This document shows, in pieces, positions 893 to 23,914 of a stretch of 32,000 nucleotides of DNA. Below the pieces are notes generated by a model. That model made no database searches and had not been told where the DNA came from. It saw only the letters and a list, made by a program, of their open reading frames with translations. Made by a program: the position numbers and the translations under genes. The DNA comes from Trichodesmium erythraeum IMS101 (GTDB taxonomy: Bacteria; Cyanobacteriota; Cyanobacteriia; Cyanobacteriales; Microcoleaceae), in assembly GCF_000014265.1 (NCBI RefSeq), contig NC_008312.1, forward strand, positions 3,210,001-3,242,000, given 5' to 3'. Every line of letters starts with the position of its first letter. The stretch's first letter is position 1.

Positions 893-1867
893 ATGTCCCA
901 GACTTTCAACCAAGGATACGCTGTTGTTATCGGAGTAGGTGATGATTTGCCGATCACAATTGATGATGCTACTGCCATTGCCAATGTATTGGGTGATTTA
1001 TCTCGTTGCGCCTATCCTACTGATCAAGTGCGTTTACTAACAGGTGAAAAAGCAAACCGTGCCAATGTTCTATCTGCTTTGAGCTGGCTGGCTGAGACCA
1101 CGGGAAAAGATGACACGGCGATCGTTTATTTTTCTGGTCATGGAATTGAAAAACCAGATTATTATTTGATGCCTTATGGTTATAATTTAGAAAATTTGGA
1201 GGGTACAGCTATTCGAGGCGAAACTTTTACGGAGTGTCTGAGAGCTATTAAAACTAAAAAATTACTGGTACTGTTAGACTGCTGCCATGCTGGTGGACAG
1301 GCAGACCCTAAGGGAATTATAAAATCACCTCTACCTCCATCGGCGATCGCTCAGTTGGGGAGCAGTAGTGGTAGGGTTATACTTGCTTCTTCGCGAAAAG
1401 ATGAACTATCTTGGACGGGAAAGCCATACAGTGTTTTTACTGTAGCATTGTTGGAGGCTTTGGCTGGTTATGGCATATTTGAACAAGACGGCTATGCTCG
1501 CGTTTTGGATCTTGCTATGTGGGTCGGACGCAAAGTCCCAGAACGTACAGGGGATGAACAGCACCCTATCATCAAGGTCTCTAATTTAGAGGATAATTTT
1601 GCTTTGGCTTGGTATGCTGGGGGGGAGAAAAGTGTGCGCCCATTGCCAAAATGGGAAACTAATATTCCATCTATTACACCAGGGTTGGATATTGAACAGG
1701 TGGCTACCTGGCGACGGATGTTGGCTAACTATCGTGAAAATCTTCTGTTAATTGAAGAACGCATGAGTGAATTTGTTGAATTTACTGATGTTCCACTAAC
1801 ACTTTTGAAAAATAAACGTCGGATAGAGGCGGAAATAACTAAGTTGGAAAAAAAATTGGGGGGTTAA
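893..1867 (+). CDS. Caspase-like cysteine protease (peptidase C14 fold) with a C-terminal helical adaptor tail
   Basis: ATG start. Caspase/metacaspase-type catalytic dyad motifs YFSGHG (His83) and LLVLLDCCHAGG (Cys131). N-terminal beta-strand YAVVIGVG. The C-terminal ~50 aa (nt 1712-1858) are helical and charged, and homologous to the N-terminus of the next gene. Confidence 0.85.
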   Translation: MSQTFNQGYAVVIGVGDDLPITIDDATAIANVLGDLSRCAYPTDQVRLLTGEKANRANVLSALSWLAETTGKDDTAIVYFSGHGIEKPDYYLMPYGYNLENLEGTAIRGETFTECLRAIKTKKLLVLLDCCHAGGQADPKGIIKSPLPPSAIAQLGSSSGRVILASSRKDELSWTGKPYSVFTVALLEALAGYGIFEQDGYARVLDLAMWVGRKVPERTGDEQHPIIKVSNLEDNFALAWYAGGEKSVRPLPKWETNIPSITPGLDIEQVATWRRMLANYRENLLLIEERMSEFVEFTDVPLTLLKNKRRIEAEITKLEKKLGG

Positions 1868-2171
1868 CTACTGAGGCCGAATAGTTAAAAGTTGGAGAAA
1901 TGTTAATGAATATTGAAAGTATGCTGATTATCTACTATCATAGATTAAGTTTTTTTCAAAAAATTACAGTTTTTTTTCATGGTTTACCAGCTCAAATGAA
2001 GTCAATTAAGACATAGTTAAAAGTTAACAATTACCAATAGAAAAAAAACCATACTTGCCAAATATCTAGGTGTGGTTTGCTGATTTATAGCTTCCCTAAT
2101 GTCATACTTATAACTGGGGAATCAAAGCTTGTATTTTTGAGTAAGAATAACTAAAATGACTATTAAAGTTA

Positions 2172-3308
2172 ATGGATGAGATTGAATCTATTGAAAAACA
2201 AATTAACAATACTAAAAAAAATCTACTTCTGACTGAGGAAAGAATATCTGAATATCCTGAGACTACGAGTGTTCCACTAAAAGACATCAAGAATAAACGA
2301 AAGTTAGAGACTAGGTTAAAAAAATTGAGAGCTCAATTAATAGGTCTTGATAAGCATCGCGATCGCTTAAAAGAACGTCGTGATATTCCTCCTTTACTTC
2401 CTTACTTTGTTAATCGTAGTAGTCAACAAATTGAACTTAAAGAAGCATTAAAAAAATTGTTCAATCATCCTTATTCTCAGCCACTTTTATGTATAATTCA
2501 CGGGGATAAATTACAATGTCATGATACATTTTTTCAATTTCTTGAAAAGGAGTTTCTGCCAAAAATATTCAAGGAAAATACCAATATAAATACAAATAAT
2601 AACTATACAGAATTTATCAAAGAATACCAACTGAAATGGCCGCCGAGAAATACTTCTATAGAAGACTTAAAAAATAGACTAGAACACAATTTAGTAGATA
2701 CGGTACTTGACAATAAATTTGCTTCAAAAGCAGACATAAATGAGTACCTGGCTAGTATTGGAACAGTTATTATTCACACACATTTGCTCACTGCTGATTT
2801 GCAGGAAAATTCATCTATAATTATTGAAAAATTTATAGAATTTTGGCAAGATTGGCCTGAACTTATTCCTAATCAACATCTAATTATTTTCTTGTTTATT
2901 AAATACAAAATTGAACCAAAACAAAACTATTTTCAGAAACTACAGAATTGGATTTTTCAGAATCTATTCAAGAATAATTCCAACACTCGAACCGGGAATT
3001 ATTCTATTCAAAAAAGTATCAAAGATTTGTCTTCCTCTAACTTTACTAAATTTGATAAAATTATCGGGGTAGTTCTGCCCGAACTTCAAGGAATTACGCA
3101 AACAGAAGTAGAAGACTGGGCCCGTAGGGAAGAAGTAAAGAATTATTGGGATGAGGAAAATATTCAAGATTTAATTAATATAATTGAGGATATGTTTGAA
3201 AAATGGGAGAAACAGCAAGCATCTGATACTATGCCTATGTCTAATTTAGCTATAAAATTGACTGATATTTTGATGGGAAAAATACCTATCAAGGAGGATA
3301 CTGCATGA
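2172..3308 (+). CDS. Adaptor protein: N-terminal helical module shared with the caspase tail, plus a P-loop-less STAND-like body (iSTAND/VMAP-like; inferred)
   Basis: 378-aa ORF. Its stop overlaps the MoxR start (ATGA at 3305-3308). Residues 8-56 align without gaps to caspase residues 274-322. The segment LPYFVNRSSQQIELKEALKK..PLLCIIHGDKLQCHDTFFQFL has the strand-loop-helix layout of a STAND NTPase, but no GxxxxGK[ST]. Confidence 0.6.
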   Translation: MDEIESIEKQINNTKKNLLLTEERISEYPETTSVPLKDIKNKRKLETRLKKLRAQLIGLDKHRDRLKERRDIPPLLPYFVNRSSQQIELKEALKKLFNHPYSQPLLCIIHGDKLQCHDTFFQFLEKEFLPKIFKENTNINTNNNYTEFIKEYQLKWPPRNTSIEDLKNRLEHNLVDTVLDNKFASKADINEYLASIGTVIIHTHLLTADLQENSSIIIEKFIEFWQDWPELIPNQHLIIFLFIKYKIEPKQNYFQKLQNWIFQNLFKNNSNTRTGNYSIQKSIKDLSSSNFTKFDKIIGVVLPELQGITQTEVEDWARREEVKNYWDEENIQDLINIIEDMFEKWEKQQASDTMPMSNLAIKLTDILMGKIPIKEDTA

Positions 3309-4297
3309 ATTTTCCATTTTACTTTGGTGACGGAAAACGGAAACCAAATAATACACCAGCTACTCTACCTGTGTCGCGACGAGCCGAATTTATCAAACCA
3401 GAAAATTATTTGGCAGATCCTGGTCTTCGCGATGCCTGCAACGTTGCTTTACTCTTGGGTCAACCCTTATTACTTACTGGAGAACCCGGTACTGGCAAGA
3501 CTTTGTTCTCTTATAGTCTAGCCTGGGAATTGGGTTTTGACGAACCACTGAAGTTTGAAACCAAGTCTACCAGCACTGCCCGGGATTTATTTTACAGCTA
3601 TGACTCCTTGAAACAATTTCAAGATGCCCAAAACAGTATATTAGACAGAAAACCTCTAGACTATCTGACATACAATGCTTTGGGTCAAGCCATCTTGCTC
3701 ACTAAAGAGCCCTCTGAAATTGAGAACTTTGTACCTCCAGATTTTTTTCACCCTGGTAAAAGACGCTCTATCGTTCTCATTGACGAAGTAGATAAAGCAT
3801 CCCGTGATTTTCCTAATGATATCCTCAACGAATTGGAGTATCTATACTTTCGGGTCCGAGAACTGGGCAATATCAAGATTGAAGCTAACTCCAAACTACA
3901 GCCTATAGTCGTCATTACCAGCAACTCTGAGAAAGACCTTCCGGATGCATTTTTGCGGCGTTGTGTTTACTACAATATTCCTTTTCCACAAAAAGAGCGC
4001 CTTGAGAATATTGTTACCAATAGACTAGGTTTGTACTCTGCTGGTAGTAGTGACTTTCTCCAGGACGCTCTAGATATTTTTTTTCAGCTACGAAAAAGCG
4101 GCTTGCGGAAGAAACCGACTACTTCTGAACTTTTGGGTTGGATGATAGCGCTCCAAGAAATTTCAGGCGGTGCAGAAAACCCCCTGGTTCAGTCTGAGCT
4201 GGCTCTGCAAACCTTGAGTAATTTGATTAAAACTGCTGAGGATCAAGATAAAGCTAAGGAGATAATGAAGCAATGGGTAAAAAGTCGCCAAAGTTAA
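3305..4297 (+). CDS. MoxR-like AAA+ ATPase (AAA_5 type)
   Basis: Walker A LLLTGEPGTGKT, Walker B IVLIDEVDKA, sensor/arginine region DAFLRRC. About one third identical by eye to the second MoxR-like ORF at 28692-29666. Translationally coupled to both neighbouring genes. Confidence 0.85.
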   Translation: MNFPFYFGDGKRKPNNTPATLPVSRRAEFIKPENYLADPGLRDACNVALLLGQPLLLTGEPGTGKTLFSYSLAWELGFDEPLKFETKSTSTARDLFYSYDSLKQFQDAQNSILDRKPLDYLTYNALGQAILLTKEPSEIENFVPPDFFHPGKRRSIVLIDEVDKASRDFPNDILNELEYLYFRVRELGNIKIEANSKLQPIVVITSNSEKDLPDAFLRRCVYYNIPFPQKERLENIVTNRLGLYSAGSSDFLQDALDIFFQLRKSGLRKKPTTSELLGWMIALQEISGGAENPLVQSELALQTLSNLIKTAEDQDKAKEIMKQWVKSRQS

Positions 4298-6798
4298 GCC
4301 CAGGGTGGCTAGAACCAGAACAGTTGATGGAATTCATTGATCAGCTTCGTAGAGAATACAAATACAATATCGGTGTATCCCAATATATTGCAGCTCAAGA
4401 GTTGATACTTGCTTTGAGTGCAAAAGGAGAGCAGTTAGAAGAACCCCAGAGGCTTAAAAGTCTTCTCGGTCCCTTGTTATGCAGTTCCCCAGCAGAACAA
4501 GAAGATTTCCAACTACGGTTTGACCAATGGATGGAACGTATGGGTTTTACCGTTCGCGAAGTTATTCATGCTGACGAAAATGCTGAGGCTCTTGAACAGG
4601 AGTTAAAAAAGATGCGGCAGGAATGGCGATGGCTACGGTGGGTACGTTTAGCGATCGCTGTTTTTCTTGTTATTGTTCTAACCAATTTCCTGATACAGGA
4701 TTTTTCGGCTTTAACTTCCCGGATGCAGCAGTTTCCCACTCCAACAGTAGATCCCTTGAAACTATTTCCACCTCAAACTCTTCAAGAATGGCGGACTACA
4801 TTTTTATGGTTAATACTCGTGCCCCCGGTTACATTCTTAGTTTGGAGACTATGGTGGCGTTGGCGTGTGGCTCTATACCTCAACCGTCGTCAGACCAGGC
4901 GGCCTCCTGAAATTCAGCGAGTGTCTATATCAGGGCTAAATGAGGAACTATTTCCCAGAGTTTTGTTTTTGCGCATTGCTCAGGGTTTGAGGCGACGTAT
5001 TCGGGTTCCATCCAATGAACTTGATATTGACAAGACCGTAGAAAAAACTGTCCGGGGAGGAGTTAGGTTTGCCCCAGTATACGGCTACTATAAGCTTCTT
5101 CCTGAATACCTGGTTCTGATCGACCGGGCAAACTACAGCGACCACCAGGCGAGACTTGTCAAGGAAATGATTGCTCAATTAACCGAGAACGAAGTCTTAA
5201 TTATAGGTTACTATTTTGATGGCGACCCCAGGGTATGTTTTCCGGTTACAGGAAAAGGCTCTCCTTGTAAGTTACGGGAAATTTCTTTGAAGTACAGCCA
5301 GCATCGGCTCCTCATCTTCTCTGATGCAGAAGGTTTTTTTAATTCCCTGACTGGGGAACTTGAAGCCTGGCTTGATTTATTTTCAAGTTGGTCTCAGCGG
5401 GCTGTTTTCACTCCCAAACCTTCGGAACATTGGGGATATCAGGAACTGAAATTATCCCGAGAGTTTATTGTTCTACCTGCAACAAATGATGGGTTAATTG
5501 ACTTGATACGGAGCATTGAACATGGAAAACTGCCTTATGTGTCTTCAGAAAAAGGTAGGGCACCTTATCCGGAAGCATTGAGAGTGCGGGGGCGGCGCTG
5601 GGTTGAGCAAGATCCACCTGAGCCATGGTTGCTGACTAATGTCCTAGGGTCTGTCCGAAACTATCTGGGGGAAGCTGGTTACTATTGGCTGAGTGCTTGT
5701 GCTGTATTTCCTGAGTTAAATTGGAATCTCACGGTTTACCTGGGGAATGCTCTTAGTGCTGGTGATGGTCGTTCTTTGCTTCAGGCTTGTCGGCTAACAG
5801 TTCTCGCTCGTTTGCCTTGGTTTCGATATGGTTATATGCCTGACTGGCTGCGCTTGTGGTTACTTTCTGAGTTACCTCGCCACCAGGAGGATGAGGTTCG
5901 TCAACTGCTTAGAAGTTTCTTGGTGGCAAAACCTGATGAGCAAGGCTCAGTTGGAAGATGGCAATTGGAAATTGCTCGGCAATACAGCAATGTTGTCTCT
6001 AGGTTGGTGCAACCACTTCTCCGCTTATTTTCTGGGGAAGCTCCTGAGGATAGTCCTCTGCGGGATTATATTTTTCAGGAGTTTATGGCAGGTCGTAAGG
6101 GACTCGCAGTGAGAATGCCGGAAGAGTTACGGGAGGAACTCCGTCGCAAATATTCACAACAAGTAGGATGGTGGTTTTGGTTTCAGTGGGTGTTGGCAAA
6201 TAGTGTGGGTTTGTTTGTGGGTTTGTTTGTGGGTTTGTTTGTGGGTGGACGGGTTGACAATATTATGGTTAGTTTTCGTATTGCTGTTTTCGGTACTGTT
6301 TTCGGTGCTGTTGTGGGATCACTCCAGTGGTGGGTACTTAGAAAACGACTTTCCCAGGCTAGATGGTGGATACTGGCAACTGCCTTGGCATCAGCTATAC
6401 TATTCTCTACAGCAGAAGTTATGTTGAATGCTGTAAGGGACGTTGTGAGCAATACTGTGATTCAGGTTGTTGTTATATCTTCTGTGGTGGGACTTGTTAT
6501 CGGATCAGCTCAATGGTTGGTTCTCAGAAAACAACTTTCTCAATCTCACTGGTGGATACTGGCAAGTGTTTTAGGAATAACTGCTACGCTCTTTGCTATT
6601 GTTTATTCTTCGCTCTTTGCTATTGTTTATTCTTCGCTCTTTGCTATTGTTTATTCTTCAAGGTTCGAGCTGGGTCTGCTTAAGACTTTTATATCCTTCC
6701 TGAGCATTTTCGGCATTATATACGGAGTAATCACTGGATTTGCCTTAGTTTGGCTGCTGCGACAACCGGGCAATTCTGTCATCAACAATAAAAAGTAA
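4273..6798 (+). CDS. Large membrane protein, predicted MoxR partner: N-terminal helical domain, 2 TM helices, CoxE-type vWA-like domain with degenerate MIDAS, C-terminal multi-TM repeat domain
   Basis: 841-aa ORF overlapping the MoxR stop by 25 nt (alternative ATG at 4327). LRRRIRVPSNELDIDKTVEKTVRGG..(20 aa)..YLVLIDRANYSD (nt 5017-5142) mimics the CoxE-type vWA lead-in and beta1 strand, but DxSxS is replaced by DRANY. LLIFSDAEG (5308-5331) resembles the vWA 'llTDG' strand. Hydrophobic helices near aa 118-140, 175-200 and 630-830. Confidence 0.6.
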   Translation: MGKKSPKLSPGWLEPEQLMEFIDQLRREYKYNIGVSQYIAAQELILALSAKGEQLEEPQRLKSLLGPLLCSSPAEQEDFQLRFDQWMERMGFTVREVIHADENAEALEQELKKMRQEWRWLRWVRLAIAVFLVIVLTNFLIQDFSALTSRMQQFPTPTVDPLKLFPPQTLQEWRTTFLWLILVPPVTFLVWRLWWRWRVALYLNRRQTRRPPEIQRVSISGLNEELFPRVLFLRIAQGLRRRIRVPSNELDIDKTVEKTVRGGVRFAPVYGYYKLLPEYLVLIDRANYSDHQARLVKEMIAQLTENEVLIIGYYFDGDPRVCFPVTGKGSPCKLREISLKYSQHRLLIFSDAEGFFNSLTGELEAWLDLFSSWSQRAVFTPKPSEHWGYQELKLSREFIVLPATNDGLIDLIRSIEHGKLPYVSSEKGRAPYPEALRVRGRRWVEQDPPEPWLLTNVLGSVRNYLGEAGYYWLSACAVFPELNWNLTVYLGNALSAGDGRSLLQACRLTVLARLPWFRYGYMPDWLRLWLLSELPRHQEDEVRQLLRSFLVAKPDEQGSVGRWQLEIARQYSNVVSRLVQPLLRLFSGEAPEDSPLRDYIFQEFMAGRKGLAVRMPEELREELRRKYSQQVGWWFWFQWVLANSVGLFVGLFVGLFVGGRVDNIMVSFRIAVFGTVFGAVVGSLQWWVLRKRLSQARWWILATALASAILFSTAEVMLNAVRDVVSNTVIQVVVISSVVGLVIGSAQWLVLRKQLSQSHWWILASVLGITATLFAIVYSSLFAIVYSSLFAIVYSSRFELGLLKTFISFLSIFGIIYGVITGFALVWLLRQPGNSVINNKK
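6205..6246 (+). repeat. Perfect in-frame 12-bp tandem repeat (gtgggtttgttt x3.5) encoding (GLFV)3 inside a TM segment
   Basis: Read directly: units at 6205-6216, 6217-6228 and 6229-6240, plus a partial unit at 6241-6246. Confidence 0.95.
6587..6658 (+). repeat. Perfect in-frame 24-bp tandem repeat (cgctctttgctattgtttattctt x3) encoding (LFAIVYSS)3 inside a TM segment
   Basis: Read directly: units at 6587-6610, 6611-6634 and 6635-6658, all identical. Confidence 0.95.
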
Positions 6799-7925
6799 CA
6801 TACTTGCGCTGCAGGCTTTAAACATCTCACATCGACGCCTCACATCAGACTCCATTAATTAACCACAATACAAAAAGACAGCACAGACAACCAAACTATT
6901 AGGCAAATATCACAGCAACTTTCATATCATTAGACCACAGTAGGGAAATGCAACCCCCCTATCTACAACCTTCCTACAAAGCTTTAGTTATGGCGATGTA
7001 GTCAATAAACTTGAAAAGCGCTGTAAAATCCTTGGGTAACTAGGGGATATGATTTTATTATAAACAAGACTTAAGCAAACACCCAGATAATACCCGATCT
7101 GTAGGAGGCAAACACCAGAAAACTCCCACTAAATCAGCTATCAGCATTCAGATATCAGCTAGAAAGAGGAATTAGGTTGCAATAAAAATCAAAAGTCAGA
7201 CACAAAAAAGATGATCAGCTCAACTTAGTAACTTTTCAGCATTCATAATTCACCATTCAGAATTCACCATTCAGCTCGAAAAATAAATTAGCCTCCAAGA
7301 ACAATTAAAATTCCGACACAGATCTGAGAATTAATGACTAGCAAATATAGCAGTCCTACATCTTATGTAAAATCATTAGACATCTGAACAAAAAACTATT
7401 TCTCACACTCCTTCAACATCAGTTTTTCCTGCTGAGAGCCTTCAGCCTTCTGTTTCCAACCTCTTACCTTCTATTGTTTGCCTGAAAGCAGACCCAATAT
7501 TTCACCCTTCAGATAGGATGAGTAGACCTTTAGTCATATTTAAATAGCTTCTGCTAGTAGCCAAGCAACTTATTTTTTTAACCAATGTACATTTAACTTG
7601 CAAGTCATCAAAATAATCAACCTAAATTAGTAGTAAAAATGTAAATTTGTATCTAGTAATAAAACTGTTTTAAAGGTATAATTATCTGGATTTATGCTCA
7701 CTTAAATTAAAATTTCTGCTTATAATTATATCTAAACAATGCAGTCATGTCAAGACTTATATAAACTTTTTTTCAATCAAAAAAAAAGTAACAATCAATA
7801 CTAACAATGTTTAAAAAAATATGATAATTTCAAAAGTAAGGTTATAAAGATAACCTCTATTAACGGCAAAAAAAAAGCCATCATATTAATCATAAGAATT
7901 ACTTAGTTGAAAGAGGGAAATAACT

Positions 7926-9299
7926 ATGAGTCTTAAACCAGGAAAAGCATCAATCTATCTTCAATCTCCTCACCACGTTGTCATCGTTGGAGGTGGATTT
8001 GCAGGACTAGAAGCTGCCAAGCAACTTGGGAAAGCACCTGTAAAAGTAACCTTGGTTGACAAAAGAAATTTCCATCTATTTCAACCACTACTTTATCAGG
8101 TAGCGACAGGAAGTCTTTCCCCTGGAGATATTGCCTCTCCTCTTCGGGGTGTAGTTGCAGAACAGAAAAACACCCATGTTATTATGGGAGAAGTCGTAGA
8201 CATCGATCCCGAAGAGAAAAAACTTACCTTACATGATCAAGAATTAAATTATGATTCATTAGTTATAGCCACTGGTGTGAGCCATAACTACTTCGGAAAT
8301 GATTGGTCAGAAAAAGCTCCCGGACTAAAAACAGTAGAAGATGCATTAGAAATGCGTCGGAGAATATTCGCCTCCTTTGAAGCAGCAGAAAAAGAAACAG
8401 ACTTAGAAAAACGGAAGGCACTCTTAACCTTTGCTATTGTGGGTGCAGGTCCAACAGGTGTTGAATTAGCTGGTGCTCTAGCAGAACTAGCTCATACCAA
8501 ATTAAAAGAAGAATATCGTTCTATCAATACCACTGAAGCTAAAATTTATCTGATTCAAAGTGGAGACAGAGTTTTACCCTCCTTCAAGCCTGCTTTATCA
8601 CAGAAAGCCAGACTAGAACTAGAGAAATTGGGCGTCACAGTAATGACCAAAACACGAGTAACTAATATTGAAAACAATGTAGTTACTGTTAGCTCTGGAG
8701 AAACAAAAACCGAAATTCCAGCTCATACAATATTATGGGGAGCAGGAGTTAAAGCATCAAAAGTATCTGAAATCATATCTAACCGTACAGGAGCAAAATT
8801 AGACCGTGCAGGCCGTGTGTTTGTCAACAAAGACTTGACAATACCTAATTATTCTGATATATTTGTAATTGGAGACTTAGCCAACTTCTCCCATCAAGGT
8901 GACTCCCCAATTCCTGGAGTTGCACCAGCAGCAATGCAGGAAGGATTTTATGTCGCAAAGCTAATTAGAAAGCGCTTGAAAGGTGAAAGTTTAAAGCCAT
9001 TCTATTATATTGACTATGGTAGTTTAGCTGTTATCGGTCGTCACCAAGCAGTTGTACAGTACAAAGCCATTCGTTTCTCAGGACCTATAGCTTGGCTTGC
9101 CTGGTTATTTATTCATATCTACTATATGATAGAATTTGATAACCAATTAATTGTAATGATCCAGTGGGCATGGAGCTACTTTACAGGTCAAGGTGGTGCT
9201 CGTCTAATCACTGAAAAATCAATGAAGACACCCAGTTATGAAGAACGTCAAGCTCGCTATACTCCATTAGTACCAAGTAAATCATCTATTGAAACCTAA
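7926..9299 (+). CDS. Type II NADH dehydrogenase (NDH-2) / FAD-dependent pyridine-nucleotide oxidoreductase
   Basis: Two Rossmann dinucleotide motifs (VVIVGGGFAGLEAAK; FAIVGAGPTGVELAG). GDLA motif near the C-terminus, then a C-terminal membrane-anchoring hydrophobic segment. Length is typical of cyanobacterial Ndb proteins. Confidence 0.85.
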   Translation: MSLKPGKASIYLQSPHHVVIVGGGFAGLEAAKQLGKAPVKVTLVDKRNFHLFQPLLYQVATGSLSPGDIASPLRGVVAEQKNTHVIMGEVVDIDPEEKKLTLHDQELNYDSLVIATGVSHNYFGNDWSEKAPGLKTVEDALEMRRRIFASFEAAEKETDLEKRKALLTFAIVGAGPTGVELAGALAELAHTKLKEEYRSINTTEAKIYLIQSGDRVLPSFKPALSQKARLELEKLGVTVMTKTRVTNIENNVVTVSSGETKTEIPAHTILWGAGVKASKVSEIISNRTGAKLDRAGRVFVNKDLTIPNYSDIFVIGDLANFSHQGDSPIPGVAPAAMQEGFYVAKLIRKRLKGESLKPFYYIDYGSLAVIGRHQAVVQYKAIRFSGPIAWLAWLFIHIYYMIEFDNQLIVMIQWAWSYFTGQGGARLITEKSMKTPSYEERQARYTPLVPSKSSIET

Positions 9300-10214
9300 T
9301 TGTAGACATTTTTATTAGGTTTAGTTAACCTAGACCATAGTAAAGAAGTCCTCTAAAATATCCTTACAAGATTTTGATGATGACGATCTAGTTCATAACG
9401 CGATATCATATCTTGTAAAATAATTTGTGTATAAAATAGTTAAAATTGAGGTAAGCCCTTTTCTATAAGAGCCTTCTGTCTCCTACTTTGCTTCCACAAA
9501 GTATAAGTATTCAGGTAGACATCATCCTCAAATATTTTTTAAATTTCTCGTTCTTCCCGACCCCCGACTTCCAACTCCTTATTCCCTCGGAGTTGGTAGA
9601 TCTAATGATGAATTATAGAATCTATTTGGTATCTTTTTCAAGCTAAATATACTTGCTGAATTAGCTAGTGTATCAAAAATTCGGGTGCTTGTAATGACCA
9701 AGTAGAGACTATTTCTGCCAATAGTAACTATAGCTTACTAATTAAGTCTAAAACCATTGACTGACATTAGTAAGTTTTTTTTTATTTGAAAAAAGTATCA
9801 GTTTTTCAGTGGGTATTGCTGATGTATGTTAGCATTTTGTGTCCCAGAATAGCCCAAAAATTGAGGAATAAATATACCCCACTACCTCCTAGGTATATCA
9901 TGTCCGGATAGTTCAGTGATCAAAAAAAAAGCGAACATCAGTGGCAACTCTATTCTCCTGCTCCAGAGCTACCCAGAGCTACATAGCCTCCTGGCAAAAT
10001 CCTCCAAAGTGTAAATATTCAACCGAACATGATATAATATATACTCCTGACTATGCCCCTCAAAAATTGTCATTAAGGTAAAAGTATAATACCCAATAAT
10101 TTCTAGAAACCAGAATTTCACAGACCTCTCTAGACCTCTCCATAAAAGCTTCTGAAACCCTGATAACAAAGTTCTAAAACCAGCATTTCTGGAGAGGTTT
10201 AACAACTCAAAGTA

Positions 10215-12668
10215 TTAACTTCTGAGATTAACTTTAAATTTATCAACCAAAGCATCCCTAACTTTTTGCTGCAGAGGATCAACATCAGCATCCGTAAGAG
10301 TGCGATCGCCAACTCGGTAAATTAACCGAAAAGCTAAACTTCTTTCACCATCGGGCACATTTTCACCCTGATATTCATCAAATAACTCAATAGACTCCAA
10401 TAACTTACCAGCAGCTCGAGAAATTACCTGTTTAATATCATCCACTGATACCCCAACTGTTACAAAGAAAGCAATATCTCGCGCAGCAGGAGGGAAAGTA
10501 GAATAACTACTAAACTTCCGTTTCCAAATATTTCCTTGAGTCATTACCGACACCAATACCCCTAAGTCAAGTTGAAAAACATAAACCTCATCTGGCAACT
10601 CTCGCTCCTGCCTTACTTGAGGGTGTAGTTGTCCAAAAATACCCAGATATTTACCTTGCAGCCACAATGACGCTGTCCGACCTGGATGTAGTAGAGAATT
10701 CTCTGAGTATGCTTTGTACTCAACCTTCAAATAGAGTCGTTCAAAAACTTGTTCTAAAATACCCTTAGCTTCAAACCAACTCAGAGGTTGTTCCTGACCA
10801 CCTCTAGTCCAACTTTTACTACCATTACTGATAACTCCAGCGATCGCCTCTGCCTCTTGATATTTTTCAACTTCATTCCAGAATATACGACCAACTTCAA
10901 ACCCATTTAAAGCTCCATTTCCTTTTTCCAGGTTATATTGAAAAGCATCAATAAGTCCCGTTAATAATTCTGTGCGCAAAGCAGAATATTCTACAAATAG
11001 AGGGTTAGCGATCGCTATTTGATTTTCCCCTCCTTGCTTAACCAAAGAATAGTGCATCAACTCTGTCAACCCCGCGCCGCGCAAAGCTGCCCGAATACTA
11101 CGGACTGCCAACTCTCCTGGAGGCAAATAACCTGCAGCACTTTTACTGGGTAAAGTTTCACAGAAATTATCATACCCATATAAACGTGCAACTTCTTCGA
11201 TCAAGTCTATTTCCCGTTCTAAGTCTCGATAACGATAAGCAGGTACTGTAACATTCCACCCCACCGCTCCTTTAGCCTCAATTTTACTCAACTCACATCC
11301 TAAAGACTTGAGAATACCTTCAACTGCTTCTGGTTGCAGAAAAGATTCATCTAAAGTATTTTCCGAAGGCTTAAGTGGCCCTAAAATTGCATTAATACGC
11401 TCTAGACTAAGGGATAACTTACGAGTTGCTGTAATACTATCTGCTTTAGTTGTAAAAGTGTCTTGATAACTCACCTTTCCTCCCGCTAATTCAGTAATTA
11501 AATGAATAGCGCGACTACAAGCCAATACTAATTCCGCAGTATTCACCCCCCGTTCAAACCTTGTAGAAGCTTCTGTGCGTAGGCCTTGACTTCGAGCTGA
11601 ACGACGGATAGCAATAGGAGCAAAAATTGCTGCTTCCAATAATAAATTTGTCGTCTGATCGCTCACCTCAGTTTCTTCACCACCCATAACTCCTGCCAAA
11701 GCCACTGGTTTCTCATTCGCCGTAATTAATAAAGTTTCAGTTTCCAGGGTGCGCTTCTGACTGTCCAAAGTTATGAGTTCCTCATTTTCATTAGCATAAC
11801 GAACTCCAATTGTCAATAACTTATGTCCTATGATCTGCTGAATTTTATCTTGATCAAACCCATGAAGTGGCTGACCCCACTCTAACAGAATATAGTTAGT
11901 GATATCCACCACATTATTGATAGCTCTAATACCTGTAGCTTCTAATCGTTCTTTTAACCATTTTGGTGAAGGACCAATCTTTACTCCTTCGATAACAGTA
12001 CCAATATAAATAGGGCAAGCACTTGATGCCGAGATATCTATTTTGATACTACTATCCCCCTCTTCATCTGGAATCAAAATTTCAGAAACATCTGGTATTC
12101 TTAGAGATGCTCCGGTCAGGGCCGCAACTTCACGAGCTACACCAATCATACTCAAAGCATCAGCACGATTTGCCGTTGTTGTCAAGTCTAAAATTACATC
12201 ATCCAGACCAAGTAAAGGCCCCACATCACTCCCCAACTCTGGGTTTTCCAGATCAAATATATGAATACCTTCAGAATCTTTTGTTAAGCCCAGTTCTGAC
12301 AAAGAGCAAATCATTCCTTCGGAGTGGACTCCCCGGAGTTTACTTTTTTTAATCTTTAAGTCAATGGCGGGCAAATAAGTACCGATGGTAGCTACTGGGA
12401 CATAGATATCTGCTGTGGCGTTAGAAGCTCCACAAACAATATTTAATGGGTCTGACTTACCAATGTCCACTTGGCAAACTTTAAGCTTATTGGCATTGGG
12501 GTGCTTGTCAGCTTCCAGTATTTTTCCTAATACTACCCCTGCTGACCAAGTGCTTCGATCTTCTATTTCTTCTACCTCAAAGCCTGCCATTGTCAAAGTT
12601 TCAGCTAACTCTTCTGGAGTAATATTGATATCTACCAGTTCTTCGAGCCATTTCAGAGAGATACGCAT
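10215..12668 (-). CDS. pheT: Phenylalanine--tRNA ligase beta subunit
   Basis: 817 aa. Canonical N-terminus [12 protein letters not shown] with a tRNA-binding OB domain ([14 protein letters not shown]), B3/4 and B5 regions, and a C-terminal FDX-ACB domain (DIAFFV...SLAFRL.YR). Confidence 0.95.
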
Positions 12669-14427
12669 TCTTTAATAATTCCCAATTTTTAGTTATAATA
12701 GTGGTGTATGTAAATTTATTTTGCGGGTATCCCCCGAACCCTCTCCTACAAGGTAAATTCCCTGCTCAGGAAGGGGTTTAGATTTTTTCGACCTTTTAAA
12801 GTTAGATACGCGCTTTCAGAGCAAATATCTCCCTCTATTAGGCCATGTTTATAACTTCAATTAACATTTTATCTCTCATGATGTCGTGGTTTTCATCAAG
12901 TCAGAAGTTGTTTTGATCATGGGAATAACCAACTTAAAACTCACAAATTAGACAACTTTATTTGTAGGGTACCTATTGAAAGCTAAAATGTAGGCTATTA
13001 AAGGGATTTAATAATTTATTGCCCAATTAATTATTAAATCCCCAAATTTTTCAGAATATTTTCCACTCCATTTACTAAATTCACATAACTTTCATAAGTT
13101 TTGATTAAATATATCCAAAAATTATCAAGGACTTGCTACTTGCTATAAATGTAATTTATCAAAACTCAAACATCAGGGCAAACCCATTTTGTCAATAAAC
13201 TGGGGATTATTTTTAAGTTATTCATAGTTTTAAGTTATTCATAGTTTATTGTGCTTGTTGGTAATAGACTGTCCACATTATGGCGCTAATAAAATAATTT
13301 AAATAATTCAAATAATTTAAATAACTCAAAACACGATAATATAAAGTTAACAGGATTTACCACGCCTGGTAGATGATATCCTATCTGTAGGGAGTGAATG
13401 CTTTATGTCCCTGGATATCGTCGTTGGTGCGTAAGTCCTGAATAAGTAAATTAGTAGGTTGACGTCCTCCCCGCCCTTTAGGCACGGGGAGGAATTTCTA
13501 CTTAGTAGTAGCTCCGAGTCCATTTAAAGTCTCTAAGTCTTGAAATGCCCGAAGGCAACTTACTAAAAATTCTTGTTGGTATTTATATGTGCCTTCATTG
13601 CGGGAGCTTCTCCGAAACCTGAAAGCTTTTCAAGTTCAATTCTTAACTTCGGATAGTTTCCTATAACCTCTTCTTTTCTACAATATTTAGAGATAAGGCG
13701 GGTATTTGAACCCTAATTATTAAAAAATTCAAAGTTGTCCAATGGGCAGGAGAGGCTTTAAACCCAATTTTTTATTCAAACCAATTTCAAGCATACTTAG
13801 GGTTTGCTCAAAAAAAACTAAAAGTATGAAAAATAAAGACTTTAGCCTTTACGTCTGCGCACCTTGAAGTTATAATCTCAAAATTGAGAATTTTGAGGTG
13901 TTTCGATCAGAAACAGGTCGGGACAATACTCCCTACTATATCCTTTATAATCCTTATTTATCCTCATTTTGTGTCTTATATCTTTACTCATTAAGGCAAA
14001 TTTTAGCAAGCCTTACTTATTTTTTTGTTCTAGTTTACCTTTGTAAAAACTGCTATACTATTGAATAGTTATAGTTTAAAAATATAAGAAAAATGTCTTT
14101 TTTAGTTAGTATTATAATCATAACTTGAGATATAAAATCATTAAAAAAAGTTCCCAGCTAAGTTGCAATCAAAATTATTTTATGGGAGATATGTTTTGAT
14201 AACAACTATAGATTTTGATTGATATAATAGATAAGTATAATGTTATTCTGACCAAAAAAAATTAGGTCTAGGTCTTCAGCTTCCTTTCTGTGAATAGGGA
14301 TTAAAAAAAAATATTCGATTCAGTATTTTAAGGATCTGGCTTCAACAGTCTGCACTAATAACTGATAACTGGAATGAAAAGATTGGTCATTTAAATAAAA
14401 AAAATTAATAATATTATTATATTTAAG

Positions 14428-16050
14428 ATGAGCTATTGTATAAATCCTGCCTGTCCTCAACCTCAAAATTTAAATAGTGTTAATAAATGTACTGCCTGTG
14501 GTTCACAGTTAATTTTGCGCGATCGCTATAAAATTATTAAACCTATTGGGAAAGGAGGTTTCGGAGTAACTTTTCTAGCCAAGGATATATCTTTGCCAGG
14601 AGCTCCCATTTGTGTAATTAAAGAACTACGGCCATCTAGTACAAAAGCAAGTGAATTAGAAATGGCTAGAAAACTATTTCAGCGAGAAGCAGAAACACTA
14701 GGAAAAATTGGCCATCATCCCCAAGTTCCCAGATTATTAGATTATTTTGAATGGAAGAAACGTTTTCATCTAGTTCAAGAATATGTAAGTGGTTTAACCT
14801 TAAAACAGGAGGTCAAAAAACAGGGAATATTTACTGAAGAACAAGGGAAAAAGTTTCTAATTGAAGTGTTGTCAGTCATAGATTATATACACACTCAAGG
14901 AGTAATTCACCGAGATATTAAACCTACAAATATTATTCGGCGGAGTGAAGATGGTCATTTAGTTCTGATAGACTTTGGTGCTGTCAAAGATCATGTGAAC
15001 CAAACTTATATATCAGGTGGTACAGGAGAAACTGCTTTTACAAATATCTCTATAGGTACTTCAGGTTTTTCACCACCAGAACAAGTGCTTTTGCGACCTG
15101 TATATGCAAGTGATATATATGCTTTGGGAGTAACTACCATTTTCTTACTGACGGGAAAAACTCCAAATAATCTTGGTTATAATCAGGTTAATGGCGAAAT
15201 TCTCTGGCATTCTCAAGTTAATGTTAGTGATATGTTTAGGGAAATCTTGAAAAAAATGCTAGAAGTTTCTGTAGAAGATCGCTTCCAGTCAGCAGAAGAA
15301 CTTTTAGCAGCTTTGAAGACAAAACAACCTGAGAAAAAACAGGTACAACCCAGACTAGATGATGCTGTTAAAACTATATTTAGAGATGAAATTACAGTTT
15401 TTAATGACAATAAAGATAATTTTTCATCGATGTCTGCCAATATTAAAATTGCTCAAAAAATTCGGCAACGCAAATATGGTTTAGAAAAAAACTCTACAAA
15501 TCAAGTTCTACCTAATTCTGTGAAGACGAAGCCCAAACATATTGAAGGATATTTGACGGTAGTACCTCCAAAAAGCAAAGCAACTAATACAACACAATTG
15601 GGTAATGAAACTCCTATAAAATGGACTGCGGCGACCTTGCGCAGTGCTTATATGAAAGGTAGAAGAGATTTTGCTGAGTGTAATTTAATTCGCTTGAATT
15701 TGTGCAATGCTAAGTTATCTGGAGCTAATTTTTATGGGGCAAATTTGGGTGGAGCTAATTTGCAAGGTGCAGATTTATCTGATTCTAATTTTGGTCATGC
15801 TAATTTAACTAATACTATCCTGAAAAATGCAACTCTGACTAAAGCTTATTTAAGTACAGCCAGTTTGGCAAATTCTAATTTGCAGAACGCAAATATGAAA
15901 AATACTTATTTGAGTGGCGCAAATTTAGGGGGTGCTAATTTGTATGGTGCTAATCTCACAAATGCAATAGTGAGCGATCGTCAACTTGAGACAGCAAAAA
16001 CTAATTGGTGGACGATTTTTCCTAATGGTAAAAGAGGTTCGATATTCTAA
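14428..16050 (+). CDS. Ser/Thr protein kinase with N-terminal Cys4 zinc-ribbon-like motif and C-terminal pentapeptide repeats
   Basis: CINPACPQ...CTACGS. Glycine loop GKGGFGVTF, VIKEL lysine, HRDIKPTNII catalytic loop, DFG, SPPE. From about aa 420 onward, A(N/D)LxG-type pentapeptide repeats (GANLGGANLQGADLSDSNFGHANL...). Confidence 0.9.
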   Translation: MSYCINPACPQPQNLNSVNKCTACGSQLILRDRYKIIKPIGKGGFGVTFLAKDISLPGAPICVIKELRPSSTKASELEMARKLFQREAETLGKIGHHPQVPRLLDYFEWKKRFHLVQEYVSGLTLKQEVKKQGIFTEEQGKKFLIEVLSVIDYIHTQGVIHRDIKPTNIIRRSEDGHLVLIDFGAVKDHVNQTYISGGTGETAFTNISIGTSGFSPPEQVLLRPVYASDIYALGVTTIFLLTGKTPNNLGYNQVNGEILWHSQVNVSDMFREILKKMLEVSVEDRFQSAEELLAALKTKQPEKKQVQPRLDDAVKTIFRDEITVFNDNKDNFSSMSANIKIAQKIRQRKYGLEKNSTNQVLPNSVKTKPKHIEGYLTVVPPKSKATNTTQLGNETPIKWTAATLRSAYMKGRRDFAECNLIRLNLCNAKLSGANFYGANLGGANLQGADLSDSNFGHANLTNTILKNATLTKAYLSTASLANSNLQNANMKNTYLSGANLGGANLYGANLTNAIVSDRQLETAKTNWWTIFPNGKRGSIF

Positions 16051-16721
16051 AATAGAATTGATTATATAAGCTTACTCCCATAGACCTCTTTTAAATCAAA
16101 AAAAATTTAGGTATAATTGTAGTGAAAATATTGTCAAGGCACTTAGTAATCCTAAATATTATCTAAAATTATATGCTTTACTTAAAAAATAACTCCAACT
16201 CCTATGACTTCAGCACAAGTGTCTTGGTGCTTCAGGCCTTAAATCAGTAGATTTTTTTTGACTTTGGGAACAAAATCATGAGAAACTTTCAGTGATTCTC
16301 TGATTTAATGATCAGAATATCTTTACTCTAGCCATTTTAGCTACCAAAGTTCTTCTGATTTATTTGGCCTCTTTTGTCTGATTAATAACATGATTGAAGT
16401 TATCATAAATAACTATTAACTTTGGCCTCAATTAGATTGTCAGAAAAAATATTCTCTTTGAGAATTTAATGGTGATCAAGCTGATAGCATAAAATATTAT
16501 CGCTTCATCGTCCCAAAGATTTCCTTGAAACTCTTCCGACGGCCAATAGTTGGTAGAAGTAGAACTAAATGCTTGTGGAAAAGAAGCTCAAAAGTAGCTC
16601 TTAATAAGCAATAACTAAGCTTAAGGGAAACCCTGAGAAGCAAGCACCTCTCGTTGTCTATACTTTTAACAGTGAGAGTGCCAAAATCTAATAGTTGAAT
16701 TTTAGGAATGACAGTATAGGC

Positions 16722-18179
16722 ATGGCATCCATTAGCGATATCCATCAACAATTAATCAGTAAGCAACGCTCTGCTGTAGAAATTACCCAAGAAGCTCTCG
16801 AAAATATCAACCAATTGGAGCCGAAGTTAAAAAGCTTTATCTGTGTTACAGCAGAAAAGGCCATTGCTCAGGCCCGTCAGGTGGATGCAAAGATTGCTGC
16901 AGGAGAGAAAATTGGACTACTAACAGGGATTCCGATCGCTGTAAAGGATAATATATGTACTAGGGGTATCCCTACTACTTGTGGGTCTAAGATTTTACAA
17001 AACTTTATTCCCCCTTATGAATCTACGGTAACTCAAAAACTTGTGGATGCTGGGGCAATAATTTTAGGCAAGACCAATTTAGATGAATTTGGTATGGGCA
17101 GTTCAACAGAAAATTCTGCCTATCAAGTCACGACTAACCCGTGGGATAACACTCGAGTTCCTGGTGGATCTTCGGGAGGGTCAGCAGCAGCAGTAGCATC
17201 GGCAGAATCTGTAGTAGCATTGGGTTCAGATACAGGTGGGTCGATTCGTCAACCAGCATCTTTTTGTGGAGTGGTAGGAATTAAGCCTACTTATGGTCTG
17301 GTTTCTCGCTATGGGTTAGTGGCTTATGCTTCTTCTATGGATCAAATAGGGCCGTTGAGTAGAACTGTGAAAGATTCTGCTATTTTATTGCAGGCGATCG
17401 CTGGTTATGACCCTAAAGATTCTACTAGTCTTAATGTCCCTGTCCCAGATTACACTAAAAACCTCACACCTAATTTAAGACCTAAAGGGCAAATTAGAAT
17501 TGGTCTCATTCAAGAGACTTTTGGTGATGGTTTAGACTCATCTGTTCTTCAAGCTTTTACTAAGGCAGTGGAACTAATGCAGGAGTTGGGGGCAGAAATT
17601 CAGGTAATTTCTTGTCCTAGATTTAGTTACGGTTTACCTACTTATTATGTTATTGCTCCATCGGAGGCTTCGGCAAATTTAGCCCGCTATGATGGGGTCA
17701 AATATGGTTTCCGTGCTAGTGAGTCGGAAAACCTCTTGAATATGTATGCTAAGACTCGTTCTGAAGGTTTTGGTTCAGAAGTTAAACGCCGAATTATGAT
17801 TGGTACTTATGCTTTATCGGCTGGATATTATGATGCTTATTATCTGAAAGCTCAAAAAGTTCGGACTTTAATTAAGGAAGATTTTGATAAAGCTTTTGCT
17901 AAAGTAGATATTTTGGCTTGCCCCACTTCTCCAACTACAGCATTTAAGCTGGGTGAAAAAAGTGATAATCCACTGAGTATGTATTTGTCTGACTTAATGA
18001 CTATTCCAGTTAATTTGGCTGGTTTACCTGCTTTGAGTTTACCCTGTGGCTTTGATCAACAAGGGTTGCCTATTGGTATGCAATTGATAAGTAATGTTTT
18101 GAAAGAAGATTTACTATTTGAAGCAGCTTATGTTTATGAACAAGCTAATAATTGGTATAAATTCCAACCTCAGCTTTAA
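16722..18179 (+). CDS. gatA: Glutamyl-tRNA(Gln)/aspartyl-tRNA(Asn) amidotransferase subunit A
   Basis: Amidase signature [12 protein letters not shown]...[12 protein letters not shown] and GatA-type N-terminus. Start moved to the in-frame ATG at 16722 ([11 protein letters not shown]), because the listed start at 16695 is a TTG. Confidence 0.93.
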
Positions 18180-19984
18180 AAATTTAGTTTTGAGTTTTGA
18201 GTTTTTATTGATTAGGTTTGAAGTGTTCATAATAGTGTGTTAGTTAATAGCTGCAATTGGAGCTTAGGAGTTAGGCACACGTTGGGAATAATTAAGTAGT
18301 TGTGCTAAGTTAATTACACATCTATACTATACAAGTTAAATTATTTGCTATATTGTAAGATTAGGTAATTCGGGGTTTGCTCACAAAATGAAAGGATTTA
18401 CCTAAATCTTACTAAGGGCTTTGTTTATTTGTATAAAAAATGTATAAGAAGTTGGTACGAGGATGTTGAAAATTGAGGATTTTCATTCAGCTATTAAAAC
18501 TAGAAAAATTGAAAGAAAATTCTTCCAATCACATCCTCTTGCTCTTGAATTTTCATTTATCTGTGCCTCTGTGGGTCACTCAATTAGTTCATATCTACCT
18601 GCCTCCTAACCTCACTCATGAAACTTATTCAGTAAGTCCTAATAAAATAGGTAAATAATTTTGCTGATGCACTCAACAATATTAACAAGTATAAACAGGA
18701 ATATACTAAGAGCTTCCATTTACATAATTTGTGAAAAATTAACAAAAAATACCTATAAGTTTTGATAGTTATATAATTTTTTTATCTCTCAAAATAATTT
18801 GCTTTGAAAGCAAGAAAATGAATGAAAAAAAGAAGTATTAATATTCTTTTTGCCGACTTATTGACTAGACTGACAATATAATAAAAATTTTTGAAGTTTC
18901 TCTAAAATATTAATAGTGAAAAACTGAGGCTGATAATTATTCTAATCTGGTATTAGCTGTGAAATTATTATGAATGGGGTAGAAGAATATACAATATATT
19001 TTGTAATGGTACTTAATTAATTAAGGGGACATAATTTAATTATCAACTTTTGTTATTTAGATTATGAAGTTGGTCTGAAAGCGCTTTCGGTTGTTATAAG
19101 ATAAGGATACGGGGGCAAGATGCCTGCAATACATGATTTTCACTATTACTTTATACATCATTTGCCCGATCGGATGTCTTAGTTGTTGGGATAGTTACTA
19201 TTATTACTATGGAAGTAGTCACTATTTCTGAAAGACTCATTCATAAAAGAACTAAACTTAAACTATTTATTAAAAACTTTTTTACTTGAGCGAAAATTAA
19301 CATAATTAGTAGAGCGTTAATCGTGCAAAAAGGTTACTCTATTTGTGTTAATTCTTTAAATTTTATGAAGTTTTATAAAAAGTTTGCATTAATTTACGGG
19401 AATTGTTGTTGCAGTGGCGTTTTCTAGATATAGAGGAAGGCTGCAAATGTTACTGATCAATAGTCTCAAAATAATAGTAATTAGCCCAAGTTATCAATGT
19501 TACAAAAAAAATTATGATGTCCAAGTCTAATAAAATATTAATAATTATTAGTAGGGTGAATCAAAATTTATTCAAACTAATTAGAGCTGCTTTTTTTTCA
19601 ACTTAGTTTGTTTAGTCTATCAAGCTCACCTTGGTTAGGTTAGAGTTCTATTTGACTGCAAAAAATAAGCTCTTTTGACTTTAAAGTCTATGTTCATTTT
19701 TCTGGCCAGGCCTTAGCTAATAGGAAACCCCGGGTATAAAGGTTGGGAAGTTATGGCTCAGTCCTTTATTTAGGAAGGGCTGTAATTTGAAAAAATATCT
19801 TCTTACTAAGGCGCGTTTTTTATGAATGCTTAAGTTTATGAGATACACTATGGAGAAAAAGTAGTCTAGTAATCTTGACAAAATAATTATCTTGTGATAT
19901 AGTCGACAGACTGTATTAAAGGGGTTATTCAAAATAAATATAATACAACGACTATAAACAATCAATTAGGAGACTATACCTAAG

Positions 19985-20479
19985 ATGAGTTTACTAAATA
20001 AGGTATTTGAAGCTTACAATGGACATCGGGTTATGTTTTCACAACCTGAAGCAATAGCTGCAATTGCAGCGTCTGCAATTGCTTCAGATGGTTATCTTTT
20101 AGAACAAGAAACAGAGCTGGTTATAACACTTTTATCTCAAATGGAAGTATTTAAAGGCTATTCAGAAAAACAAATTACGAATATGCTTAATAGGTTGTTA
20201 AGTACACTCAGCGTCAAAGGAATTAATAATGTAGTAGCGATAGCTAATGATTCACTACATCCGGAGTACAAAGAAGCAGTTTTTATGTTAGCTACTGAAA
20301 TAATTTTAGTAGATGGGGTTTTATGTGGTAAAGAACAAGCGTTTTTAATTGATTTGTTTCAGGTATTGGAAATCTCTTCAGAAAGGGCTTCACAAATTTT
20401 TACCTCTAAATCAGAGGCCTATCGGGTTACTAATAAGAAATCTAAAAACTATAGAATTAATCAAGGTTCTCTTAAGTAG
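19985..20479 (+). CDS. TerB-like (tellurite-resistance TerB family) small protein
   Basis: Two helical halves, each with the TerB-type pattern A..ASDG.L...E / E.ILVDG.L...E..FL..L...L.I. Size matches the conserved cyanobacterial TerB-family proteins. Confidence 0.55.
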   Translation: MSLLNKVFEAYNGHRVMFSQPEAIAAIAASAIASDGYLLEQETELVITLLSQMEVFKGYSEKQITNMLNRLLSTLSVKGINNVVAIANDSLHPEYKEAVFMLATEIILVDGVLCGKEQAFLIDLFQVLEISSERASQIFTSKSEAYRVTNKKSKNYRINQGSLK

Positions 20480-20556
20480 ATGAGAATATAGTTTGATCAT
20501 AAAATTACGAACATAGATATACTAGATAACTTAAGGATCATTTCTTATTGATTAAT

Positions 20557-21741: not shown

Positions 21742-21809
21742 AACTTTGTCTGGTTTTTCTATATATATAAATGAAATGCTATATAAAACTGATATAATTC
21801 CAGTGATAT

Positions 21810-22226: not shown

Positions 22227-22317
22227 ATTTGATAACTGAACTATTTGGATGTGCTCTGAGCATAATAACATGAAAATATGGTTGCTTCCATAGAATTTTT
22301 CATTGGTTCACCCTAAA

Positions 22318-22565: not shown

Positions 22566-22697
22566 TTAAAGAGTTCTCCCGCCGTCGCAGACTACACGAA
22601 AACCGATAACGTCGTAGTGGACGTCGCGCCCAGCAGAGTTGTAGCGAATCGCAGAACGGCAATCATTAGGAATGTTGACCCAGGAACCGCCCCGCAG
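22566..22697 (-). other. Candidate DGR variable region (VR-B), including the stop codon
   Basis: See the DGR finding. Gapless 132-nt alignment with 23969-24100, with mismatches concentrated in codon positions 1-2 of NNY codons. Confidence 0.6.
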
Positions 22698-23888: not shown

Positions 23889-23914
23889 AAAAAAATTTTT
23901 CCCGCTTCGCGGGA
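23889..23914 (-). terminator. Putative intrinsic terminator of the 892-aa gene
   Basis: Minus strand reads tcccgc-gaa-gcggga, followed by aaaa and then ttttttt. This is a 6-bp GC-rich stem (23900-23914) about 55 nt after the stop codon. Confidence 0.5.

Follow-up and report, generated by a model that had tools for sequence, protein, structure and literature searches.

A caspase-family protease and an iSTAND (inactive STAND) protein encoded side by side in the cyanobacterium Trichodesmium erythraeum IMS101 carry copies of one small helical domain, the caspase at its C-terminus and the iSTAND protein at its N-terminus. The two genes lie in a stretch of 32,000 nucleotides (positions 3,210,001 to 3,242,000 of contig NC_008312.1, hereafter the window), at the head of a four-gene locus that also encodes a MoxR-type AAA+ ATPase and a large protein of 841 aa. 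We propose, with a probability of roughly 0.7, that the shared domain, here called the module, acts as a docking device that would tether the caspase to the ternary system formed by the other three proteins, with activation of the protease by proximity and growth arrest or cell death as the outcome.

The caspase and the iSTAND protein share a terminal domain

The caspase gene (893..1867, + strand; ABG51299.1/WP_011611670.1) encodes an orthocaspase of 324 aa, an effector or signalling protease. Peptidase_C14 was matched by Pfam over aa 8-236 (E=3.7e-21), and both catalytic motifs are intact, SGHG at aa 81 and DCCH at aa 129. The catalytic domain is followed by a Pro/Gly-rich linker (aa 237-266; 1601..1690, +), which has no Pfam coverage and is low-confidence and non-helical in the AlphaFold2 prediction, and then by the first copy of the module (aa 267-324; 1691..1864, +), a predicted helix-loop-helix hairpin. 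After a spacer of 304 nt (1868..2171) comes the gene for the iSTAND protein, the third component of the ternary system (2172..3308, +; 378 aa; Tery_2059, ABG51300.1). Its first 58 residues (2172..2345, +) are the second copy of the module, and PF19995 (iSTAND) covers aa 77-243 with 54.9 bits against a cutoff of 24. A P-loop motif was sought across the 378 aa of this protein and is absent.

A preliminary description of the locus had aligned caspase aa 274-322 (nt 1712-1858) with iSTAND aa 8-56 (nt 2193-2339) by hand, without gaps and with 23 identities in 49 positions, and this alignment proved exact. BLASTP extended the match to caspase aa 267-324 against iSTAND aa 1-58, again gapless, with 24 of 58 residues identical and 40 of 58 positive (E=2e-11). 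Every other high-scoring segment pair between the two proteins had E>3 (best E=3.8); the bodies of the proteins are therefore unrelated, as had been claimed. The best local gapless BLOSUM62 score was 123; 2000 shuffles that preserved composition gave 25.9 ± 4.4 (maximum 48), hence a z-score of 22, and in the fixed register the shuffles averaged 4.8 identities, with at most 15. The family hidden Markov model (HMM) described below scored the caspase copy at 101.5 bits and the iSTAND copy at 70.4 bits, and a tblastn search of the 32-kb window found these two copies only.

At the DNA level the two module segments are 54% identical (51/61/51% at codon positions 1/2/3). With third positions no more similar than the others, the similarity is therefore old and conserved at the level of protein; recent duplication or gene conversion was considered as its source and ruled out on the same figures. 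We read the two segments as copies of a single domain of ~58 residues that is ancient, mobile and non-enzymatic.

The module defines a broad family with a predicted hairpin fold

HMMER was run exhaustively over 1.84 billion cluster representatives with a profile built from nine module sequences; 614 of them matched at E<=1e-3, and 201 of these at E<=1e-10. An earlier word-indexed search with a two-sequence profile had returned only seven Trichodesmium-like fragments, and the wider family needed the exhaustive search. Among the top 155 matches the module was C-terminal in 53, N-terminal in 45, internal in 11 and present in multiple copies, up to four in tandem, in 10; a further 38 were fragments or stand-alone sequences. 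The preliminary description had regarded placement at the C-terminus of an effector as unusual. These counts speak otherwise, and effector-associated domains (EADs), the published adaptor class to which the module is compared below, occur at either end of proteins according to their description (PMC7159879).

The consensus of the module is sLrrQLanaReNLrLIEERmSEYVxxTDIPLQLIKekRrLeqRIAELEakL. Its near-invariant residues, in caspase numbering, are L284, L286, R290, P301, L302, I315 and L318, with P301 kept in 96-98% and R290 in 92-98% of module sequences. Two conserved motifs, N-L-x-L-I-E-E-R-x-S-E-Y-V and D-I/V-P-L-Q-L, do not follow a heptad pattern; hydrophobic positions read from the alignment are spaced 3-4 residues apart, heptad-wise, in both module helices. 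N-terminal modules were on average 43% identical to each other, C-terminal modules 45%, and N-terminal to C-terminal modules 43%, and the consensus of the two groups was identical.

AlphaFold2 predicted a helix at aa 267-293 of the caspase tail, a loop and a second helix at aa 302-321. The model of the whole caspase was made from a single sequence and is poor (predicted local distance difference test, pLDDT, 42), and its secondary structure alone was used. For P0013, a protein with two modules, the prediction gave two helical hairpins with a mean pLDDT of 84, in which packing between the modules is not shown. The module, with its two predicted helices over ~58 aa and no match to a catalytic family, is predicted to fold as an antiparallel two-helix hairpin.

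P0013 has 155 aa and comes from a 675-nt contig of the European Nucleotide Archive. It joins a variant iSTAND-type N-terminal module (compare P0309, P0310 and P0315) to a caspase-tail-type module, the junction falling between GRDI and EQVA. Either the contig is a chimera from assembly or the protein genuinely has two modules and is possibly an adaptor or decoy. Four other proteins, P0008, P0028, P0029 and P0036, consist of two to four tandem modules with no other domain (four copies in P0008, three in P0028); by analogy with CARD-only proteins, such proteins could be multivalent hubs or inhibitors. A scan of viral contigs for phage-encoded mimics of the module found none.

The domains fused to the module fall on two sides. 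On the effector side it is joined to Peptidase_C14, CHAT, TIR_2, FGE-sulfatase, HD-CE, Mrr_cat (an Mrr-type restriction endonuclease) and SIR2_2, and the scaffolds that bear it are iSTAND, nSTAND1 with or without WD40, and NACHT+HD; PQQ propellers, HEAT repeats and protein kinases were also found fused to it. Small proteins of 135-260 aa combine the module with known EADs in the arrangements EAD1-module, EAD7-module, EAD9-like-module, EAD7-EAD9-like-module and module-EAD1, and from their composition they look like bridges between adaptor networks. Direct fusions of effector and scaffold were found as well. P0091 contains a caspase, the module, a P-loop STAND and HEAT repeats in a single chain, and in distant iSTANDs TIR, trypsin or DUF4062 is fused directly at the N-terminus, in the module's place. 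These Rosetta-stone cases support, at the level of domain architecture, a functional link between effector and scaffold.

Effector and scaffold genes with the module recur as neighbours

To survey gene context, GTDB representative genomes were scanned with the nine-sequence alignment pattern, which is biased toward modules of the caspase-tail type, and 18 loci were obtained. They come from Anaerolineae and other Chloroflexota, Okeania, Syntrophorhabdus, Acidobacteriota including Holophagales, and an anammox planctomycete, so that the phyla represented include Chloroflexota, Acidobacteriota, Desulfobacterota and Planctomycetota. At 11 of the 18 loci a gene whose product ends in the module was followed on the same strand by a gene whose product begins with it, with a gap of usually -13 to +71 nt. 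The upstream partners included caspases (L006, L009, L010 and L011) and, in L015, an EAD1 bridge protein encoded directly before a module-nSTAND1-WD40 protein. The downstream partners were nSTAND1 proteins with or without WD40 (L011, L015 and L018), a NACHT+HD protein (L010), an AAA_16 STAND-like protein (L006) and beta-propeller proteins (L009, L013 and L014). L011 encodes in addition a Big_5/GIFT-domain protein with an internal copy of the module, and L003 two proteins with C-terminal modules, one SIR2-like and one caspase, about 3 kb apart.

The closest homologues of the iSTAND protein, from Trichodesmium, Okeania and a Nostoc edaphicum plasmid, have the module at the N-terminus, and a caspase ending in the module lay directly upstream in all three iSTAND contexts retrieved. 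The order caspase-module, module-iSTAND, AAA+ and large protein is kept in Okeania and in a metagenome contig; on the Nostoc edaphicum plasmid the first three genes are kept and the fourth was not called. The effector–scaffold pairing thus recurs in other genomes, a check that the preliminary description had proposed to make with a 49-aa profile. Cognate module pairs scored slightly higher than non-cognate pairs (108.6 versus 101.0, permutation P = 0.012).

An Okeania locus (Okeania sp. SIO3B5, L026) has a further gene, at 3236-5821, directly upstream of the operon for caspase, iSTAND, AAA and a 906-aa protein. It encodes an 861-aa TPR-CHAT protein in which no module was detected.

The pair belongs to a MoxR-centred four-gene locus

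Downstream of the iSTAND gene lies the gene for an AAA+ ATPase of 330 aa (3305..4297, +; AAA_5 33.9 bits, AAA 33.5 bits), which shares its first 4 nt with the end of the iSTAND gene. Both Walker motifs, A (GEPGTGKT) and B (IVLIDE), are intact, and the AAA_5 match together with the context makes the protein a putative member of the MoxR clade. The fourth gene (4273..6798, +) overlaps the MoxR gene by 25 nt and encodes the 841-aa protein, which stands in the position of a vWA/effector component. All four genes are co-directional, and the locus is kept across many Trichodesmium assemblies.

The 841-aa protein itself had no Pfam match. Its homologues share a core of ~620 aa (~73-78% of the query), followed by a C-terminus that varies between lineages: FGE-sulfatase is the most frequent, and WD40, TPR, pentapeptide, trypsin, CVNH, peptidoglycan-binding, amidase, VanY and CHASE2 C-termini were also found. 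The C-terminus of the protein in the window is a region of ~6 transmembrane (TM) segments, aa ~635-830.

Kaur et al. (2020) describe an iSTAND–MoxR–vWA ternary conflict system with a variable C-terminal effector, of which FGE-sulfatase is the commonest form and of which membrane-proximal variants exist (PMC7159879). From its sequence features, the window locus appears to match this system, the exception being the vWA domain, which the published system has and which was detected in the fourth protein neither by Pfam nor by a profile search against PDB. The two have in common a PF19995 iSTAND, an adjacent MoxR-type AAA+ with overlapping frames, a filamentous cyanobacterial host, and a large protein whose core is conserved and whose C-terminal effector region is hypervariable; among homologues of the fourth protein this region is likewise most often an FGE-sulfatase, and there are also TM and peptidoglycan-binding forms.

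Several smaller observations concern the same genes. The TM-rich C-terminus of the 841-aa protein contains two perfect in-frame tandem repeats, one at 6204-6246 (12 nt x3.6, encoding GLFV) and the other at 6587-6659 (24 nt x3, encoding FAIVYSSL), and the orthologues range from 821 to 859 aa in length among Trichodesmium assemblies. Together, the in-frame repeats and these lengths suggest that repeats drive length variation in this putative membrane effector. The region of the iSTAND gene (window positions 2001-3000) has a GC content of 0.30, compared with 0.41 for the caspase and 0.39-0.47 for the downstream genes. The caspase–iSTAND spacer is AT-rich in Trichodesmium, and an open reading frame of 36 aa is called there in some assemblies. 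With 304 nt it is longer than at orthologous loci, the same junction measuring 17-170 nt in Nostoc, Okeania and the metagenome contig. A promoter-like match was found in it at 1913-1941; the whole spacer showed no enrichment over shuffles.

The module behaves like an uncatalogued effector-associated domain

By its position and partners, the module behaves as an EAD as Kaur et al. (2020) define the class, with binding predicted (PMC7159879). A copy lies at the terminus of a core component, namely iSTAND aa 1-58, and N-terminal copies were also found on nSTAND1 (with or without WD40), on NACHT+HD and on other iSTANDs. Further copies lie on effectors encoded by adjacent genes, as in the window caspase, at 11 of 18 loci and at all three iSTAND loci, and the module is small and non-enzymatic. 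EAD1-EAD11 and bDLD1-3, the EADs of NTP-dependent conflict systems, share these traits: they are small and non-catalytic, lie at the N-terminus of third components and at the N- or C-terminus of effectors encoded by adjacent genes, and have caspase, CHAT, TIR, FGE-sulfatase, restriction endonuclease and STAND proteins as partners, with homotypic coupling predicted for them as for the module. The framework of PMC7159879 predicts exactly this architecture of one copy on the effector and one on the third component, and that paper and Kaur et al. (2021; PMC8195603) explicitly report iSTAND ternary systems with EAD-coupled caspases or trypsins encoded by adjacent genes. The adaptor logic advanced in the preliminary description is strongly supported by comparative evidence, in that the module is mobile, sits on many effectors and scaffolds and recurs as a pair in unrelated genomes; as a principle it is not new, being that of the published EADs.

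The family itself was absent from the resources searched. In Pfam searches of 84 full-length members no family matched more than 8, hence none covers the module, and the named Pfam EAD families (PF199xx, every model able to score) gave no match at gathering score. When 63 module sequences were searched at E<=1, EAD9 alone appeared, in 6 of the 63 and with a best E of 0.029, below the cutoff; the module consensus matched no EAD model at E<=0.1. EAD1, EAD7 and EAD9 co-occur with the module in the same proteins, and their matches fall outside it, in separate regions. At ~58 aa and two helices the module is shorter than EAD1, whose model has 90 positions. Kinship with EAD9 was considered and ruled out, the hhalign comparison with the EAD9-like domain giving a probability of 0.6%, equal to shuffled controls. 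NCBIfam contains no model for the module, and searches with it against PDB, by sequence profile and by Foldseek, returned coiled-coil and helical-bundle noise only. No match to a death fold (CARD/DD/DED/PYD or bDLD), a six-helix bundle of about 90 aa, was found in Pfam, PDB sequence or Foldseek; for the module, two helices over ~58 aa are predicted. A literature search on Tery_2058 gave no match, and the module tail goes unmentioned in a survey of cyanobacterial orthocaspases. The module, which neither Pfam 2025 nor NCBIfam 2026 includes, appears to be new or at any rate uncatalogued; the EAD authors may have recorded the region under some label.

Two known assemblies offer precedents for how such a module might work. 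In the caspase-9/Apaf-1 apoptosome a homotypic helical adaptor tethers the caspase to a STAND-type scaffold, and the caspase is activated by induced proximity. The same tether logic would apply to the binding proposed here. The CARD is a six-helix death fold at the caspase N-terminus, whereas the module is a predicted two-helix hairpin at the caspase C-terminus, and no sequence or fold relationship between them was found in Pfam, PDB sequence or Foldseek. A further difference from the apoptosome is the catalytically inactive STAND of the window, where a protein of its own, MoxR, supplies the ATPase. Rop-type dimers form a four-helix bundle from two ~60-aa hairpins, and resemble the module in size, predicted helix-loop-helix and heptad spacing of hydrophobic residues, which suggests a plausible docking geometry; no sequence similarity between the two was found. 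CARD-CARD coupling is cited as the precedent for EADs themselves (PMC7159879).

A docking model and its alternatives

In the model that we favour, the C-terminal module of the caspase would dock on the N-terminal module of the iSTAND protein, a sensor or scaffold, most likely by packing of hairpin on hairpin into a four-helix bundle. This dock, homotypic or near-homotypic, would tether the caspase through the Pro/Gly-rich linker, so that a catalytically competent protease would be attached to the conflict system of iSTAND, MoxR and vWA-like/TM effector. Once triggered, the scaffold would be remodelled by the MoxR ATPase, and the caspases tethered to it would be gathered and activated; we propose this step by analogy with CARD-CARD coupling in the apoptosome. 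Active caspase would then cleave a downstream effector, in this locus probably the C-terminal multi-TM region of the 841-aa protein, or else other targets, and the outcome would be growth arrest or cell death. The analysis shows the homology of the two copies, the breadth of the family, its domain partners, the recurrent adjacency of the genes and the hairpin prediction; direct binding between the copies, its stoichiometry and geometry, the proximity activation and the identity of the caspase substrate are inferred. The tight juxtaposition of the two module-coding segments at most loci would also favour co-translational assembly, a point that we offer as speculation. The same coupling mechanism is proposed for EADs in PMC7159879.

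A number of results weigh against this docking model. The cognate partner ranked first at only 2 of 11 loci, a weak cognate specificity, and N-type and C-type modules do not form distinct subfamilies, so that pairing specificity, if any, is not obvious from their sequences. At 5 of the 18 loci a module protein is followed by at least 2.5 kb of downstream sequence in which no partner is present. The 304-nt spacer leaves co-transcription of caspase and iSTAND in Trichodesmium unproven, and the vWA expected in the fourth protein was undetected by Pfam or by a 24-sequence profile run against PDB sequences.

The most serious alternative, which we consider improbable, is that the module self-associates separately in each protein, giving caspase dimers and iSTAND oligomers, or binds a common third partner (MoxR, the 841-aa protein, the membrane or nucleic acid), with no dock between caspase and iSTAND. 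Caspases require dimerisation for activity, which suits this explanation, as do the lack of class distinction between N-type and C-type modules, the weak cognate preference, the multi-copy module-only proteins and the module proteins with no partner nearby. It accounts poorly for the tight and directional adjacency of effector-module and module-scaffold genes, which holds across phyla and with varied scaffolds, and for the direct fusions that stand in for the module pair. The arrangement in L015, where an EAD1-module protein is encoded directly upstream of module-nSTAND1-WD40, is understandable only if a module on one protein meets a module on another.

Far less probable is a role of the module as a pro-domain or cleavage substrate, its basic patch (K-x-K/E-R-R) being cut by an Arg/Lys-specific orthocaspase. 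K306, R309 and R310 are conserved, and orthocaspases cleave after basic residues (PMC6426788); the basic residues of the module lie within a predicted helix, however, and the module is also found with TIR, restriction endonuclease, FGE-sulfatase and SIR2-like domains and in systems that have no caspase close by. A generic likeness of coiled coils or of composition, without specific homology, to which the preliminary description had tied the refutation of its claim should shuffles score equally well, has in its favour weak matches of module sequences to many coiled-coil Pfam families (E 0.001-0.1), designed coiled coils in PDB at E~0.2 and Foldseek hits to generic helical bundles only, and is effectively refuted by the shuffle z-score of 22, the conserved non-heptad motifs with P301 and R290 kept, and the 201 strong profile matches, which are restricted to protein termini in conflict-system architectures.

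Beyond the docking model, we put forward only tentatively, and as somewhat more doubtful than not, the broader proposal that the two-helix hairpin is an uncatalogued EAD family and the smallest such adaptor, a hub that would connect caspases and other effectors with iSTAND, nSTAND1 and NACHT proteins in at least 5 phyla, and be cross-wired to EAD1, EAD7 and EAD9 by bridge proteins. In this proposal the near-universal gene order, in which an upstream gene ending in the module directly precedes a gene beginning with it, would favour docking during translation of the polycistronic mRNA. The conceptual picture, published in 2020-2021, is unchanged, and the novelty is modest: it lies in the definition of the family and in the evidence for a cross-wired adaptor network. 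The 58-residue pair is a minimal and tractable system for the still-unproven hypothesis of homotypic EAD coupling in bacterial apoptosis-like immunity. The module would also account for the wiring of a Trichodesmium orthocaspase, otherwise 'domain-less', to an NTPase-regulated sensor. Pfam-based surveys record such caspases as Peptidase_C14 only; with the new HMM at least 600 protein clusters could be annotated, and effector–scaffold wiring and bridge adaptors that current databases miss would come to light.

Other features of the window

On the - strand at 22566-31981, ~16 kb from the first system (6798 to 22566), lie the genes of another MoxR-centred ternary system, this one VMAP-type. Two of them encode FGE-sulfatases, one stand-alone (22566-23411) and one forming the C-terminus of an 892-aa protein (23969-26647); the others encode an AAA_5 ATPase (28692-29666), an EAD7+VMAP-C protein (29753-31144) and a DUF900 alpha/beta-hydrolase (31214-31981). 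A second copy of EAD7 was sought in the 32-kb window and none is present. Between the two ternary systems, at 14428-16050, lies a gene for a Ser/Thr protein kinase fused to pentapeptide repeats.

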